Part shown: in pieces, positions 50,299 through 59,975 of the stretch | Position numbering within the stretch: the first letter of the stretch is position 1 | How the letters are laid out: each line of letters starts with the position of its first letter | Virus record (IMG/VR): IMGVR_UViG_3300031993_000010 | Location: 32,001-96,000 of that record | Length of the DNA stretch: 64,000 nt | Source: a virus | Lineage: Duplodnaviria; Caudoviricetes | Strand: one strand, 5' to 3' | The notes under the pieces: model-generated | What the model was told of the DNA's origin: nothing | Seen by the model: the letters and a program-made list of their open reading frames with translations, nothing else | Database searches by the model: none | Position numbers and translations under genes: made by a program

Positions 50299-51072
50299 AT
50301 GAGATACCAAGGAAGCAAGGCAAGACTTGCCAATAGCATTATCCCGATTATTACCAAGAACCTCTATAGTACGGACAAACTGTTCGTTGACCTGTTCGCA
50401 GGTGGAATGAACCTTGTTGACAAGGTTGACCATCCGTACAAGGCAGCTTGTGACATCAACAAATACGTCATAGAACTGTGGCGTGAACTGAAGGAGAACG
50501 GTGATAAAAATATACCCCAATATGTAACGTTTGAGGACTATCAGAAAGCCAAACAGCAGGTTCTGTATGAGGGTGAGGCTGTTTTCTCGAATGCAGAGTT
50601 GGGTTTTATAGGTCCGTGCTGTTCATACGGCGGCGGTTGGTTCAACGGGTATGCAAGATTTAACCCGAAGAAGAATGAAGACCACGTAAAGGAAGCACGT
50701 TCTGCCCTGCATAAGCAGGTGGAGAACTTCAAGCATCTTTCCGATACACGTTTCTATATAATGGACTATCAGAATCTTGAGATGAATTTCGACAAGGAAC
50801 AGATTGACAACATGGTCATATACTGTGACCCTCCATACAGCGAGACAAAGAAATACATTTCCGACTTTGACAACCAAGCGTTTTGGGATTGGGTACGGCG
50901 GATGTGCAAGACCTATAAGTGCGAGATATATGTCTCGGAATACAATGCGCCACCTGATTTTAAGTGCGTTTGGGAGAAAAAGCGGCCCGACGGCATGGGC
51001 ACATCCAAGACAGGTGAAAGGCAAAAGGTAAAAACGGAAAAACTATTTGTATATGATGAAGACATACAGTAA
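50299..51072 (+). CDS. Dam-family DNA adenine methyltransferase
   Basis: MRYQGSK, DLFAGG, YCDPPY, VSEY; ATG 50299 lies downstream of the class A promoter. Confidence 0.9.
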   Translation: MRYQGSKARLANSIIPIITKNLYSTDKLFVDLFAGGMNLVDKVDHPYKAACDINKYVIELWRELKENGDKNIPQYVTFEDYQKAKQQVLYEGEAVFSNAELGFIGPCCSYGGGWFNGYARFNPKKNEDHVKEARSALHKQVENFKHLSDTRFYIMDYQNLEMNFDKEQIDNMVIYCDPPYSETKKYISDFDNQAFWDWVRRMCKTYKCEIYVSEYNAPPDFKCVWEKKRPDGMGTSKTGERQKVKTEKLFVYDEDIQ

Positions 51073-51736
51073 AATTTTGGCGCATATTCCTCATTCATCC
51101 ATACAGGACTACGGTTACGGATGGGTTAGTTTGGCATTGATGTTTCCTCAGGTCAAGCAGTTAACCGATTGGCATACTGAGTTACTTTTCAACTCAAGCA
51201 ACCCCAAGGTTGAGGCAATGGTTTTTCCACATTCACGCTTCTATCTTGACGTGGAGCGCCTTGAAAATGACCCAATGGAGAATATCGGACAGGGAAAGGT
51301 ATACACGGAATACGACGGTTTCAAACGCAGTAACCTCACCCCTGAAGACATTGATAAATTAAACAATCTCTATCACGAATGGAAACAACTGTGTGCAGAC
51401 AAGGTCTCAGAGGACACCCTTGTCATTGACTGTCATTCGTTCGCTTCTTCAGTGTCTCCGAACATTGACGTGTGTATCGGGTTCAATGAGGATAATTCCA
51501 AGCCAAGTGACGAGGTCATAGACTTCATCATAAACGAATTCAAAATGCGTGGGCTTCGGGTGGGGGTGAATGAACCTTATTCCAATTCAATAGTTTTTGG
51601 AAAGGGACACCATTCAATAATGATTGAGTTGAACAAATCCATATATATGAATGAAGATACTCTTTTAATGCACCCAAATTCCTATAAGTTAGGTAATACA
51701 ATCCAAGGAATATACAACAGACTTTTGGGTGAATAG
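51053..51736 (+). CDS. N-formylglutamate amidohydrolase-like protein
   Basis: HIPHSS, TDWHT, SRFYLDVER, IDCHSF, NEPYS, IMIELNK. Confidence 0.85.
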   Translation: MMKTYSKILAHIPHSSIQDYGYGWVSLALMFPQVKQLTDWHTELLFNSSNPKVEAMVFPHSRFYLDVERLENDPMENIGQGKVYTEYDGFKRSNLTPEDIDKLNNLYHEWKQLCADKVSEDTLVIDCHSFASSVSPNIDVCIGFNEDNSKPSDEVIDFIINEFKMRGLRVGVNEPYSNSIVFGKGHHSIMIELNKSIYMNEDTLLMHPNSYKLGNTIQGIYNRLLGE

Positions 51737-51767
51737 ACTATTTATTGTAAAAGAATCAATTAAAACA

Positions 51768-52379
51768 ATGGATATAAAGCCTATATATGAAAATGCAGTC
51801 AGTTTTCATGACTTGTTTGAAAACAATATTGTATCGGAAGATGATGACAATAAAAGCCAAGAGGTGCACAATCTGATGACCGACCCTAAGAATTGGATTG
51901 TGAATGATTACGATGGATTTGTGGACAGTCTCAATAAGAGTACCCGAAGTGGGTTCCTCACACATTATACTCCTGAAAAATTGAAAGAATTAGGTGCAAC
52001 AACCTATCAGCTTAACGGATACAATATAGGATATGCGTTGATACCGACGAAAGAAGGTGAGGTGGATATAGTCTCTGTCCATAACAACGAACCCGACATA
52101 CATAATGTGGGTGATGTCATGCTCAAAAATGCAGTCAAGAACGGCGGTACACAGTTGGACCATTTCGACGGCAAACTGTCTGATTTTTATTCCAGAAACG
52201 GATTTGTTGAACATGACCGCCTGAAGTGGGACGATAAATACGCCCCTGAAGATTGGGATTACGAAAAATACGGTCGTCCTGACGTTATAGTGAGAAGGAA
52301 CTATCAGGCACAAGTGAATGAATGGGTATCTAAACAGAAATCCGTAACCGAGATGATAGAGAAATTCTATCAGAAATAA
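51768..52379 (+). CDS. GNAT-fold acetyltransferase (polyvalent-protein type) with cleavable-looking termini
   Basis: DIVSVHNN...GGTQLDHFDG.LSDFYSRNGF; CTATTTAT at 51738-51745; LFE/VSE at the N-terminus and VNE at the C-terminus. Confidence 0.65.
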   Translation: MDIKPIYENAVSFHDLFENNIVSEDDDNKSQEVHNLMTDPKNWIVNDYDGFVDSLNKSTRSGFLTHYTPEKLKELGATTYQLNGYNIGYALIPTKEGEVDIVSVHNNEPDIHNVGDVMLKNAVKNGGTQLDHFDGKLSDFYSRNGFVEHDRLKWDDKYAPEDWDYEKYGRPDVIVRRNYQAQVNEWVSKQKSVTEMIEKFYQK

Positions 52380-52389
52380 AATAAATTAT

Positions 52390-52782
52390 ATGGCAAAAGC
52401 AACAAGAGTCTGCAAGACTGTCACCCCAATGAGTGGTGACAATGTCTTCGATGTTTCCAGACCAAACATACTTTCCAACCCCTTCACCCACATCAAGGAT
52501 AAGAAGACGCTTGCAAAGCGTGTCGTCAAGGACAGGGAGACTGCAATAGCGCTTTATGAGAAGTACTTTGACGAGATGGTGTCCAAGGAAGGTGGTTTCA
52601 AGAAGGAGTTCGACAGGATGTACGAGGCGTTCAAGTCGAACGACGAGATATTTGTCATGTGCTACTGTAAGTTGGATGAAGCCTGCCATGGAGACATAAT
52701 CATCAAAAAACTGCAGAACAGGTTGGTGAAGGAGAAACTTGATGAAATAACTAAAAGAAAGGATTGCCCGCAAGAGCCTTGA
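52390..52782 (+). CDS. DUF4326-family protein
   Basis: RPNILSNPF...RETAIALYEKY...CYCK..ACHGDII. Confidence 0.8.
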   Translation: MAKATRVCKTVTPMSGDNVFDVSRPNILSNPFTHIKDKKTLAKRVVKDRETAIALYEKYFDEMVSKEGGFKKEFDRMYEAFKSNDEIFVMCYCKLDEACHGDIIIKKLQNRLVKEKLDEITKRKDCPQEP

Positions 52783-53059
52783 TAGTTTCTTCAACCTCAG
52801 TACAGGTGTCTTGGAATGAAAACACCTCCTCGGGTGAAAGTTCAAACCATTCGTTCAGGACACGTCTGTTGGCGAACCTTGTATGCAGCATTTTCTCCAT
52901 CTTGAACGGTCTCTTTGAGGGAAAGTATGAGACAACATGCAACTCGTTTCCGTTCCCCGTTTGGAGTTTCTTGATACGCTTTTCAATACTACCCCTTGTT
53001 ACACCTATCTTGTAGTACTCGGTTGCCGCATCACAAATCAGATAGACATATCCTCCCAT
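52751..53059 (-). CDS. GIY-YIG superfamily (T5orf172/MUG113-like) nuclease domain protein
   Basis: GYVYLI...YKIGVT...RIKKLQTGN...EKMLH...EWF. Confidence 0.85.
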   Translation of the reverse strand: MGGYVYLICDAATEYYKIGVTRGSIEKRIKKLQTGNGNELHVVSYFPSKRPFKMEKMLHTRFANRRVLNEWFELSPEEVFSFQDTCTEVEETIKALAGNPFF

Positions 53060-53083: not shown

Positions 53084-53121
53084 TTTGTCTATTCGGAAAA
53101 AGTTCTTATCTTTGCAAACGT
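53084..53121 (+). promoter_or_regulatory. Class A promoter TTTG-N19-TATCTTTG-CAAACGT
   Basis: Bacteroides consensus. Confidence 0.8.
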
Positions 53122-54006: not shown

Positions 54007-54258
54007 ATGTTGATACAGTTAGAGGATGACGAGTCTTATTATTTCAACCCGAAGTATGTGTCTGACATGTATTCATATACACATAAAGACAATAACCGTG
54101 GCACAACATTTTTCCGAATCGAGTTGAGAACGGCACAAGACAGGAGTTATACCTTCTCTTGGACGAATAAAAAGGAAAGAGATGCGGAATATGCCAAAAT
54201 GGTAAGGGCTGTCGAGGAATACAACACTGAAAACAAAGAAAACAACGATTGTGATTAA
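54007..54258 (+). CDS. Hypothetical protein
   Basis: ORF in the gene run. Confidence 0.5.
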   Translation: MLIQLEDDESYYFNPKYVSDMYSYTHKDNNRGTTFFRIELRTAQDRSYTFSWTNKKERDAEYAKMVRAVEEYNTENKENNDCD

Positions 54259-54270
54259 ATTAAATAGAAT

Positions 54271-54342
54271 ATGAAAAAATACACATTTGAAGATATAGAG
54301 AAAGAAGGATTGGTACTGTATCGATTCTATCGTGAGTTATAA
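54271..54342 (+). pseudogene. Orphaned 5' end of the nucleotidyltransferase gene (23 codons)
   Basis: MKKYTFEDIEKEGLVLYRFYREL* aligns residue for residue with MKKYGFKEIEDLGLLLYRYVRGS at 55803. Confidence 0.8.
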
Positions 54343-54418
54343 AAGGGGTATTAAATTTTATGGAATTTGAAGTTGCATATATTTATATTAATAATAAGGG
54401 ATAAAAATAATATAATAT

Positions 54419-55822
54419 ATGCTAAAAAGAAAAAAAGGTTATTGGACAATAGAACGTGCAATTGAAGAATCTAAGAAGTATCAGCATCGTTCAGATTTTA
54501 AAAAGGGTTCTAATCGAGCATATGAAGTTTTGAAAAAAAATGGGTTGCTGGATAAATTCTGTTCGCACATGTCCAAAAAAGATGTCATAAAAAAATGGAA
54601 TAAAGAAGCGTGTATCGAAGCCGCCAAACAATGTAAGACCAAAAGTGAATTTAGTAAGCGTTTTAATGGTGCTTATGTAATATCCAAACGAAAGGGGTGG
54701 TTTGATGAGTTGGTACAATATTTTACACCTGTCGGTTCCAGATACAAAAGATGTATTTATGCTTGTGAGTTTCCAGATAAACATGCTTATATCGGTTTAA
54801 CTTATGACATAAATAAAAGAATAAAACAGCATTTCAAGAATAAGGATAGCGCGATATATCAGTATATACAAACGACCAAATTAACCCCAATATTCAAGCA
54901 AATAACTGAATATATTGATTATGGCGATGCTGCTATAAGAGAGGGTGAGATTTTGGATGAATATAAGAATAATGGATGGGTAATGTTAAATAGATGCCCA
55001 ACAGGTGGGCTTGGCTCAACAGATGAAGAAATAATAAGAAAGTGGACAAGAGAAAGGTGTATTGAAACGGCGAAACAATGCAGTTCTTATACCGAATTTA
55101 ATGAAAAGTATGCCGGTGCTGTGAATTATATGGTGCGTCATAACCTTTTAGATGAAATTAAAGAAATACTTCCACCGTGTCGTGCTACACGTCACAAATG
55201 GACAGAAGAAACTGCGTTAGATGAATGTAGGAAATATGAAACGTTGGCTGAATTTCAGAATCAATCTCCGGGCGCTTATGTTTTTTTATTAAAACACGGA
55301 CTTCATGAAAAAATGCGTGAAGGGAAAAAAATTTTACAAAGAGATAAATGGACATTTGAAGAAGCGAGAGTGGAAGCGTTAAAATATAAAACAAAAAAGG
55401 AATTTAAAGAACATGCAAGTGGATGTTATCAGGTTTCGGATAGACACGGGTGGTTAAAGGAAATCACCAAACATATGGAACCATCGGTTAAACCTAAATA
55501 CACAGAAGAAATTGTTATAAATACATTACATAAGTTTTCAAGAATGGGGGAGTTAAAAAATAATAAAGACCCTTTAGTAAGAGGAGTGTATTGGTGGTTA
55601 AAAACAAAAAGAAAATTAATTGAATACAAAAAATATTTACATGGAGACCCATTACTTTCTAAAAGGGTTTCGTGGACAAATGAACTCATTCTAGATGATG
55701 TTAAAAAACACAAAACATACACTGATTATTATTATAATGGGCGAAGTTATCAGTATTCAAAATCACATGGATTAATAGAATTAATTAAAAAATACTATAA
55801 AGATGAAGAAGTATGGTTTTAA
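54419..55822 (+). mobile_element. Free-standing GIY-YIG homing endonuclease with seven ~45-aa helical repeats
   Basis: CIYACEF...AYIGLT...RIKQH...E...LN; visibly AT-richer than flanks; ATATTTAT at 54379-54386; flanked by the duplicated start of its target gene. Confidence 0.85.
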
Positions 55823-57047
55823 AGAAATTGAAGATTTAGGTTTATTGTTATATCGATATGTACGTGGGTCACATGCATACGGAACACAGTTACCTGGTGG
55901 TGTATCAGATATTGATGAGGGAGGTGTCTTTTTGGAACCCGCCAACCAAGTCATAGGTCTCGGTCTTGACTTTCAAGACCAAATACAGGATGAGAAACAT
56001 GACAAGGTGTGGTACTCCCTGAAGAAATACCTCAACCTGCTTTGTACATCCAACCCGAACATGTTGGAGAGTCTTTTTGTGGATGACGAGTTCGTAATAT
56101 ATGAACATCCAATCATAACCGAAATAAAGAAACATCGGCAGGAGTTTGTGACGAAGGAGTGCTTCAATGCTTTTATAGGTTATTCAATAACGCAGATACA
56201 ACGGGCACGTGGTCTCAACAAGAAAATTGTCAATCCGATAGAGAAACGGCTTTGGCCGCTTGACTTCTGTTTCGTTCCGTATAAGCAGGGCAGTTCCAAC
56301 ATAAGGGAATGGCTGAAGCACCGTGGGTTGGAACAGAAGTACTGTGGTCTTGTGTCTATCAACAACATGCCTGGGTGTTACGGTATCTATTACGATTGGG
56401 GTGCACATAACAGTGAAAAATACAAGGATTACAGTGAGTTTGAAACTGATGAGGTGTACTATCGTTTCGTTGAGTCAACCTTCGACGACCCGTATATCGG
56501 TGACATCGAGACGTTCATGATGAGTTGGTGGTTTGAGAAAAACCAAAAACCGATAGGGTATAGAGGTATTGTGCGTGAGGATGGTAACAGTGACGATGTA
56601 AGGTGCAGTTCGGTGGAAAGGGACATTAGTCCGATAGTGACAATGTGTTATAACCAAAACGGATTCGAGTCACACTGCAGAAAGTGGAAAGAATATCAGG
56701 ATTGGGTGAAGAAACGCAACCCTGTGCGTTATGAGAGCAACCTTGGTCACAATTACGACAGCAAAAACGTCATGCATTGTTTCCGCCTCATGAACATGGG
56801 ATTGGAAATCGCCAAGACGGGAGAGGTGCATGTCAACCGCAAGGGAATTGACGCAGATTTTCTGCTTGACGTGCGGAACCACAAGTTCGAGTACGACTAC
56901 CTCATAGACCTGCTTGAGGGTCGCAAGGCGGAACTTGACGAGGCAATAGCCAATTCGACATTGCCCGATACAATATCCCGTGAGTTTGTAAACGACTTGC
57001 TTGTGGATATCAGGCGAAAGACACTCTCGGATGCATTGTTGAAATAG
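55803..57047 (+). CDS. RlaP-like (DNA pol beta superfamily) nucleotidyltransferase
   Basis: RGSHAYG...SDIDEGGVF, SNPNMLE, YDSKNVMHCFRL. Confidence 0.85.
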   Translation: MKKYGFKEIEDLGLLLYRYVRGSHAYGTQLPGGVSDIDEGGVFLEPANQVIGLGLDFQDQIQDEKHDKVWYSLKKYLNLLCTSNPNMLESLFVDDEFVIYEHPIITEIKKHRQEFVTKECFNAFIGYSITQIQRARGLNKKIVNPIEKRLWPLDFCFVPYKQGSSNIREWLKHRGLEQKYCGLVSINNMPGCYGIYYDWGAHNSEKYKDYSEFETDEVYYRFVESTFDDPYIGDIETFMMSWWFEKNQKPIGYRGIVREDGNSDDVRCSSVERDISPIVTMCYNQNGFESHCRKWKEYQDWVKKRNPVRYESNLGHNYDSKNVMHCFRLMNMGLEIAKTGEVHVNRKGIDADFLLDVRNHKFEYDYLIDLLEGRKAELDEAIANSTLPDTISREFVNDLLVDIRRKTLSDALLK

Positions 57048-57056
57048 TAACTTGGG

Positions 57057-57085
57057 AAAACGCAGCCGACAAAGGTTGCGTTTTT
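57057..57085 (+). terminator. Rho-independent terminator
   Basis: aaaacgcagcc-gacaaa-ggttgcgttttt. Confidence 0.8.
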
Positions 57086-57138
57086 CATTTTATATGATAT
57101 TTATTAATATAATAAGAAAAAAAATATTGGAATATCAT

Positions 57139-58550: not shown

Positions 58551-59975
58551 ATGACAATAACAGAATATAAGGAAATAATAACATATCTAAAAGGTTGCAT
58601 ACAGGGTAGCGACTTTGAAAACCACACGTTTGTTGTGGGAGGTGCGGTACGTGATTTTTTAATGTACAACCCTATCAAGGATATTGACCTTGTGATTGAC
58701 ATTCCTGACGGAGGTTTGAAGTTCGCCGAATGGATGAAGGAACAGGGATATACGGTCGGAAGTGTGGTTACATACCCGACATACGGCACGGCAATGTTCA
58801 AACTTGCTGCATACCCCGACATTGAATTGGAATGTGTGCAGACGAGGGGAGAACAGTACCACGACAAGAACAGCAGAAACCCTGAAACCTGTTTCGCAAC
58901 CATCAAGGAAGATGCTTTCAGGAGAGACTTGACAATCAATGCAGTGTACCACAATGTAAGCACAGGTGAAATTCTTGACATCACAGGCAAAAGCCTTGAC
59001 GACATCAAGAATCACGTGATACGGTGCGCAAACGACAACCCAGACGTGGTGTTTATGGACGACCCTTTGAGAAATATGAGGGTGTGCAGGTTTTCAGCCC
59101 GTTATGGTTGGAAGATAGAGAAAGAGACGTACATGTCCATGATACGTAATGTTGCCCGTCTCGAGATAATCACCAAGGAACGCATACAAGACGAACTGAT
59201 GAAAATACTCACCTGTAAGAATCCTGTGATGGGACTTGAGGAATTGGAGGATATGGGTGCGTTGGAGTATGTGATTCCAGAACTTGAGGAAACGGTTGGA
59301 ATGGAACAGAACAAATACCATTTTGGCGATGTGTGGGAACACACTCTCAGGGTTGTGGAGAACGCAAGCAAGATGGCGGTTGAGAACGATTATGACAAAC
59401 AAGTGCTGATGATGGCAGCGTTACTGCATGACATTGGAAAGATAAAGACCCGTTCCGAGAAAGACGGAAAAGTACATTTCCTGTTCCACGAAGTCGAGGG
59501 GGCGAAACTTGCCGAGGGGATAATGAGAAGGCTGAAATTCAGCAACGATTTCATTTCCAAGGTTTCATTCCTTGTAAGGGAACACATGAGATTCAAAAGT
59601 TTTGGTGATGAAGTACCGTCTGACAAGGCATTGAGGAAATTCCAGTATCTCTGCAAGGACAAGGAACTTTTCAAACTCTGTGTCTATCTGATACATGCCG
59701 ACAATACAGCACATGCCGAGGAATACTGTCTACCAAACCAATGCAGGAAAATACTCGAGCGTTCGGAGGAACTTGAGAAATACGGTGAATCCATGTTCGG
59801 GTACAAACTACCTATAAACGGATTTGACATCATGAAAATCAGGGGAATAGACAGTGGACCTGATATAAAGAAGTGTCAGGATTATCTGATAAAGTTGGCA
59901 TACAACGGAGTCGGCAAACTTGACAAGACAAGGTGCATACAGATGGTAAAAAGTTTCAACCCGCAAAAAAGTTAG
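58551..59975 (+). CDS. cca: CCA-adding tRNA nucleotidyltransferase with HD domain
   Basis: VGGAVRD, DIDL, DAFRRDLTIN, DDPLR, ERIQDEL, HTL...LLHDIGK. Confidence 0.92.
   Translation: MTITEYKEIITYLKGCIQGSDFENHTFVVGGAVRDFLMYNPIKDIDLVIDIPDGGLKFAEWMKEQGYTVGSVVTYPTYGTAMFKLAAYPDIELECVQTRGEQYHDKNSRNPETCFATIKEDAFRRDLTINAVYHNVSTGEILDITGKSLDDIKNHVIRCANDNPDVVFMDDPLRNMRVCRFSARYGWKIEKETYMSMIRNVARLEIITKERIQDELMKILTCKNPVMGLEELEDMGALEYVIPELEETVGMEQNKYHFGDVWEHTLRVVENASKMAVENDYDKQVLMMAALLHDIGKIKTRSEKDGKVHFLFHEVEGAKLAEGIMRRLKFSNDFISKVSFLVREHMRFKSFGDEVPSDKALRKFQYLCKDKELFKLCVYLIHADNTAHAEEYCLPNQCRKILERSEELEKYGESMFGYKLPINGFDIMKIRGIDSGPDIKKCQDYLIKLAYNGVGKLDKTRCIQMVKSFNPQKS

Follow-up and report, generated by a model that had tools for sequence, protein, structure and literature searches.

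Our comparison of alleles points to a route by which a nuclease with no intron or intein could enter a conserved phage gene and leave that gene working. The gene is rlaP, which encodes a nucleotidyltransferase, and it lies in a stretch of 64,000 nt (the window, meaning the whole of the DNA analyzed here) from a 227-kb virus record, 62% complete, of an uncultured jumbo phage. The alleles show that the nuclease has its usual home just 5' of rlaP and indicate, at the level of sequence, that the nuclease gene and the first ~37 rlaP codons travel as one cassette. We consider it likely that the nuclease is a free-standing GIY-YIG homing endonuclease resembling SegG, which would cut near the codons of the catalytic SDxD motif and enter non-syntenic phages through one-sided repair.

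Organization of the interrupted gene

Features given here are on the plus strand unless stated otherwise. The operon that ends with rlaP is headed by a putative bipartite promoter (TTTG ... TAnnTTTG, 53084..53114), a pattern match that we take to be the Bacteroidetes-type promoter consensus and from which we infer a Bacteroidetes host. A search for a capsid match in the phage's own record gave none, an uninformative negative. Beside an 83-aa host gene (54007..54258; 90% nucleotide identity to the empty locus L012, where it adjoins rlaP across an 11-nt gap) lies an orphaned native rlaP 5' end (54271..54332), here called the stub. It begins with an ATG at 54271 and runs for 21 homologous codons, the last of which encodes the Arg of the RGS motif, followed by two extra codons and a TAA at 54340-54342. 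The left end of the insert (54333..54418) comprises this stop codon and an AT-rich spacer; it is without homology to the empty allele and, at 86 nt, accounts for all of the insert's non-coding sequence. Similar spacers lie 5' of the nuclease in L004, L017 and L102. The spacer holds a phage promoter-like motif, TATTTAT (54380..54392), which nearly all occupied loci have 5' of the nuclease. The nuclease gene itself (54419..55822, 467 aa) matches PF01541 (E=3e-7) and shares 20 nt at its 3' end with a 414-aa nucleotidyltransferase ORF (55803-57047). This ORF is composite: a foreign replacement 5' end of 37 codons (55803..55913), holding RGS and the S-D-x of SDxD, precedes the native rlaP body, which starts at the second Asp of SDxD (55914..57047; PF10127, E=4e-18; phrog_388). 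A hairpin resembling an intrinsic terminator (57055..57086, consensus match only) lies 3' of rlaP.

A three-part layout of stub, AT-rich GIY-YIG gene and overlapping new start had been described in a sequence-only reading of this DNA, and it is confirmed by the ORFs, by composition and by the score of the stub. GC and GC3 are 0.33 and 0.26 in the nuclease gene and 0.45 and 0.55 in the rest of the host gene. The stub and the new start are identical at 13/21 aa and 38/63 nt; because their ungapped BLOSUM score is 68, and the runner-up of the 127,870 six-frame 21-mers in the window scores 28, the match is not a chance one.

The downstream ORF (66.6 bits against PF10127, cut-off 23) belongs to the RlaP family, whose Pseudomonas members add NMP to RNA 3'-OH ends and in which three conserved Asp residues are catalytic (PMC12776372). 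The RGS and SDxD motifs are invariant in our alignment A2. Phage members of the family are longer, and their putative RNA-repair role is assigned by homology only.

Three further features lie in the neighborhood. A 1.3-kb block (51058-52357) carrying genes for an N-formylglutamate amidohydrolase (PF05013) and for an unknown protein of 203-216 aa is missing from the same-species loci L012 and L014. A small T5orf172/MUG113 GIY-YIG-like gene on the minus strand (52751-53059) is conserved in L012, L014 and L214, and is a stable neighbor outside the cassette. A gene for a CCA-adding-type nucleotidyltransferase with an HD domain (58551-59975) is beside rlaP also in L007, L008, L012 and L214; this recurrence suggests a tRNA-repair cluster.

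Empty and occupied alleles of one phage species

An empty allele was found through the 90% cluster of the nucleotidyltransferase, which contains a 412-aa member, P0241. Its loci, L012 and L013, come from the same phage species and have the same gene order, no nuclease, and 90-94% nucleotide identity to the window. Homology between the window and L012 breaks off at 54332, within the codon for the RGS Arg, and begins again abruptly at 55914, the second Asp of SDxD: an insert of 1581 bp (54333-55913) stands in place of 43 bp of the rlaP-like gene. The stub is 90.3% identical in nucleotides to the empty start (flanks 90-94%), whereas the new start is 61.3% identical over its first 62 nt; the stub is thus native, as the sequence-only reading had held, and the replacement foreign. 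Beyond the right junction, the rlaP body is identical to the empty allele at 369/377 aa and 93.7% of nucleotides.

The replacement differs from the recoded copy of ~21 codons that had been proposed. It extends over 37 codons to 55913, with a two-codon insertion; the GS motif and the first catalytic Asp lie within it. The replacement is also a foreign allele: The new start is nearer to that of the occupied L004 (26/37 aa) than to that of its own empty allele (20/35 aa), although the body shares 98% identity with the empty allele and 58% with L004. It had further been expected that nuclease-free relatives would have the stub joined directly to the GS motif; the real empty allele departs from this across codons 22-35 and has two codons fewer. 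The comparison supports the idea of an element-borne replacement start that restores the gene.

Junctions and the predicted cut site

The cognate empty/occupied pairs are L012/window, L098/L102, L002/L008 and L120/L067, and in every mappable pair the right junction is at the SDxD codons: homology resumes at the second Asp in window/L012 and L008/L002, and at the first Asp in L102/L098. The left junction is variable. Stubs are 28 (L021), 21 (window), 12 (L067), 9 (L008), 8 (L006) and ~5 (L065) codons long, those of 5-9 codons being individually weak calls; seven other occupied lineages have no stub, and in L102 the whole 97-aa upstream gene has also gone. An insertion fixed at the RGS codons, as originally claimed, does not fit this series, in which stub ends range over 0-28 codons and the right junction stays at SDxD. 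The L021 stub keeps the native GS motif and seven more codons, and ends one codon before the D-S-D-x-D of the related empty allele L149. Provided that the target is conserved in L021, whose nuclease is more distant (~46% identity), RGS is thus merely where the left end stopped in the window.

These junctions also bear on a precise cut and insertion at RGS with a purpose-built recoded copy, in which the segment from RGS to SDxD would have been lost as the right end was trimmed to the first good homology. Such an event would explain why the stub in the window stops precisely at the RGS Arg. A weak reading takes the bases after the stub for the native G-S codons minus 2 bp. In L006 there may be a decayed stub of 21 codons that ends in RG, and an RG-like word lies ~80 nt upstream of many nuclease genes. 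We nonetheless hold this account to be improbable, given that the L021 stub passes beyond GS, that other stubs are shorter or absent, and that the replacement is a 37-codon foreign allele with an indel, not a synonymous copy.

A word readable as Y-x-R-G was seen ~75-95 nt upstream of the nuclease ATG at most occupied loci (54340-54350 in the window); it marks the left end of the cassette and is possibly a relic of an older stub.

Taken alone, the window bounds the cut only to codons 21-36. Since SDxD opens the first long conserved block, crossovers would gather there even with a cut further upstream. From the junctions as a whole we lean towards a cut within a few codons of SDxD, and regard a cut at RGS, or one between the two motifs, as each rather unlikely. 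No sequence feature around SDxD was found that cleanly separates occupied from empty alleles. A GS-SDxD spacing of more than nine residues, present in 10/15 occupied and 4/19 empty alleles, is not diagnostic; occupied and empty loci were not told apart by how GC3 differs between N-terminus and body (p=0.13); and when pairwise identities of nuclease, N-terminus and body were correlated with one another, every combination gave a similar value, which was uninformative.

Two alleles without the nuclease carry short patches of donor type. In L123, a patch of ~60 nt that is near-identical to the nuclease-linked L067 allele ends at S-D, and the rest is L120-like; L215 has a similar patch of ~40 nt just 5' of SD. 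These patches could be products of marker exclusion or of excision. An apparent tiny stub in L215 was rejected, being the end of the upstream gene. The relatives L004, L017 and L101-L106 share a left junction, as would be expected of two-sided homing after entry.

The nuclease and its spread

The nuclease domain (31 bits against PF01541, cut-off 22.6, aa 112-185) retains the GIY-YIG catalytic Tyr, Tyr, Gly, Arg, Glu and Asn, and Y114, Y124, G126, R134, H138, E175 and N191 are invariant across 19 nuclease homologs (alignment A1). The top three fold matches of the predicted structure are I-TevI catalytic domains, with weak E values of 0.2-0.3. Most of the protein (54440-55820) consists of tandem three-helix repeats of ~51 aa, about seven in number, which flank a central catalytic domain (~aa 110-192): two precede it and five follow, plus a shorter terminal one. 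The repeat number varies among homologs, and rlaP-linked copies are 318-471 aa long. No solved structure matched the repeats or RlaP, and an Atlas search returned unnamed clusters only. The repeat array may serve as a modular reader of DNA that is tuned to the codons of SDxD. The same repeats, with no nuclease-domain match, recur in a second gene outside the window (G000:C1:165098-165415, minus strand).

Nuclease relatives were traced to their contigs, and linkage to rlaP was judged against homolog score. All relatives scoring at least 700 are directly upstream of rlaP, mostly with an overlap of 8-29 nt; below 600 none is beside rlaP, apart from two broken copies, and distant members precede other genes. 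About 13 host lineages, dispersed across the rlaP tree, carry the closest relatives. In a tree built from rlaP bodies, in which the empty alleles are a set that we selected and not a random sample, 13 occupied rows need 12 changes, and their clustering does not exceed that of shuffled labels (427/500). Nucleases of one tight clade (L009, L010, L065) are carried on distant rlaP bodies, and nuclease copies are 99.4-99.6% identical where neighboring genes of the host phages are only 70-87% identical. Patchy spread together with near-identical copies in diverged hosts is, in sequence terms, a homing pattern; with the linkage to rlaP, it lends support to the earlier suggestion of a mobile, homing-type nuclease.

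Relatives were found by alignment-based searches, whereas a single-sequence nuclease search of viral contigs gave no match. Metagenome contigs searched for the stub with a degenerate DNA pattern gave none either. Cultured phages have only distant relatives, with less than 35% identity among the 15 matches listed.

Alternatively, the nuclease could have no present activity and be a long-standing neighbor of rlaP moved by modular recombination, with crossovers favored in the SDxD block. Phage genomes are mosaic, the region also has an unrelated 1.3-kb indel, and some nuclease copies are frameshifted or truncated (L007, 4190-4390; L019; L038). Against this stand the invariance of the catalytic residues, the right junction shared by repeated independent gains, the near-identical copies in diverged hosts, and the strict linkage to one target gene; taking both sides together, we give modular recombination only a small chance.

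Several observations concern other loci. Distant relatives lie just 5' of a dCMP deaminase-like gene (assigned by eye) in L025, L026, L041, L042, L044, L069, L070, L077 and L078, and just 5' of a sigma-factor-like gene in L062, L063 and L091. These are probably sister clades with other targets; a crude scan found no stubs at either type of locus. A second putative nuclease gene (DUF723) was seen in L101 (L101:5148-6413, directly 3' of rlaP) and in L017, and the L101 rlaP is without an internal segment of ~56 aa that L102 has. The rlaP call in L103 is split (L103:3894-5244), which may be an assembly error.

Integrity and expression of rlaP

In L014, which is a third allele from this species, window positions 54054-55748 are gone, and with them the stub, the element promoter and nearly all of the nuclease; the foreign start and an intact rlaP gene remain. 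As judged from its reading frame, L014 shows that stub, promoter and nuclease are dispensable for the integrity of rlaP; splicing is thus not needed. The deletion leaves an in-frame fusion with the 20-nt overlap kept, which we rejected as evidence of translational coupling because one deletion in three would do so.

The splicing-free arrangement of the sequence-only reading, with no intron core and no intein, is borne out. Besides the intact gene without a stub in L014, the insert has only its 86 nt of non-coding space, an Rfam scan of the insert found no RNA family at E<=5, and the nuclease has its own start and stop and a frame different from that of the host gene. The insert contains neither the ribozyme core of a group I intron nor an in-frame fusion with splicing motifs as in an intein. 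The exon-like order of stub and downstream gene might still suggest that a degenerate or unrecognised self-splicing intron, or translational bypass, joins the two. We consider this very improbable: the non-coding spacer folds weakly (-5.2 kcal/mol), the three reading frames differ, and the downstream gene is complete without the stub, which most occupied loci, like L014, do not have. Scarcely credible is a gene in pieces like Aeh1 mobE in nrdA, with a 23-aa stub peptide acting with the downstream protein: the ATG and its native context are preserved in the stub, which is probably translated, but the downstream protein already has a full N-terminus, and stubs vary in length, decay or are missing.

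The motif read earlier as a late promoter, TATTTAT at 54380, sits on the coding strand as the reverse complement of the T4 late consensus. What holds is its promoter-like character: in its own genome it lies 20-39 nt upstream of genes more often than expected (16 observed vs 0.9 expected), and by this measure it is a real promoter-like signal in the window genome. The host gene may have come under the element's promoter but need not have done so: L014 lost this promoter and kept the gene. From the operon promoter to rlaP the analysis found no terminator, so that the element promoter would add to the old one.

Proposed mechanism

We propose the following series of events for the cassette. In a mixed infection, the nuclease would cut an rlaP that lacks the cassette, close to the conserved codons of the catalytic SDxD motif. 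Of the two broken ends, the right one would then pair with the donor rlaP and copy leftwards through the donor's 5' codons, the nuclease and the promoter. Where the two phages share no homology in the genes upstream of rlaP, the left end could not pair; it would undergo variable resection and illegitimate joining, and the stub would be the surviving remnant of the recipient 5' end. One-sided repair with illegitimate, microhomology junctions and long resection is established in T4 (PMC2988022). The product would be a chimeric full-length RlaP, its frame intact, presumably expressed from the new start without splicing, and the imported segment would probably resist recutting. Among close relatives, the cassette could spread by ordinary two-sided homing, and may decay, leaving the foreign start behind.

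A more far-reaching version, in which the nuclease clade is adapted to one-sided homing, RlaP N-terminal modules are shuffled and the repeats read SDxD, is tentative, and we doubt that all of its parts hold together. If it were true, homology would be needed only inside the target gene, allowing jumps between jumbo phages of unrelated gene order, and movement of the nuclease would shuffle the catalytic N-terminal module of RlaP among jumbo phages. Already on the main proposal, phage RNA-repair enzymes would exchange N-terminal catalytic segments by way of a selfish element, and hit-and-run events would leave chimeric genes that annotation misses.

Comparison with known systems

The seg genes of T4, of which segG lies between genes 59 and 32 and encodes a nuclease that cuts gene 32, resemble the window nuclease in being GIY-YIG genes outside introns that adjoin their target, overlap their neighbors and move with a piece of the target; the conversion patches without nuclease likewise resemble marker exclusion (PMC2988022, PMC535899). 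The position outside any intron or intein, the existence of empty and occupied alleles and the patchy horizontal spread agree with this type. In T4/T2 crosses, however, there is homology on both sides and no stub, whereas in the window entry into a new lineage would leave a dead 5' stub. The window nuclease also differs in that its domain is central within tandem helical repeats.

The mobA cassette in the topoisomerase gene of T4-like phages, as presented in a preprint (bioRxiv 10.1101/2022.08.31.505936), also enters coding sequence at a catalytic site with no intron or intein. According to the preprint, which reports Bonocora et al. 2011, 55-75 nt of the host gene are deleted and replaced by an element-borne homologous region spanning the nick site; insertions were repeated and independent, and the nuclease was later lost with the imported part kept. 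In the window, similarly, 43 nt are deleted and covered by the 37-codon replacement. By the same account, mobA, an HNH element, gives two functional polypeptides with added tails, and ribosomal bypass. In the window, in contrast, the whole N-terminus is replaced, a single polypeptide would be made and the upstream part is discarded: the stub is variable or absent, and the downstream ORF is complete.

In fungal mitochondrial mORFs, the nuclease travels with a foreign gene terminus, forming a hybrid gene and stranding the native terminus, without splicing (PMC3630166). Examples are Allomyces macrogynus atp6 and Glomus atp6/atp9/cox2/nad3 (PMC3630166), and duplications in Tremella (PMC7315562). 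The window has a foreign terminus in frame with a native body too, but at the other end of the gene and in a phage: fungal mORFs replace the 3' end, in the order foreign piece, nuclease, dead native end (PMC3630166), and the window is the 5' mirror image, in which replacement requires its own start signals.

The combination of one homologous and one illegitimate junction after variable resection has a parallel in T4 one-sided intron homing (Parker, Belisle and Belfort 1999, as summarized in PMC2988022). The T4 case, as that summary gives it, is a laboratory group I intron construct, whereas the window belongs to a natural intron-free series. In a literature limited to open texts, we found no paper on a phage 5' replacement with a dead stub. 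The window system is best filed as a variant within known homing-endonuclease biology, and its value lies in a complete natural series and a testable prediction on the junctions, the right one fixed and the left one variable: Empty, occupied, immune-patch and decayed alleles would open one-sided homing, a result of laboratory crosses with T4, to tests in nature, with a cut site predicted to about a dozen codons and real substrate pairs supplied.
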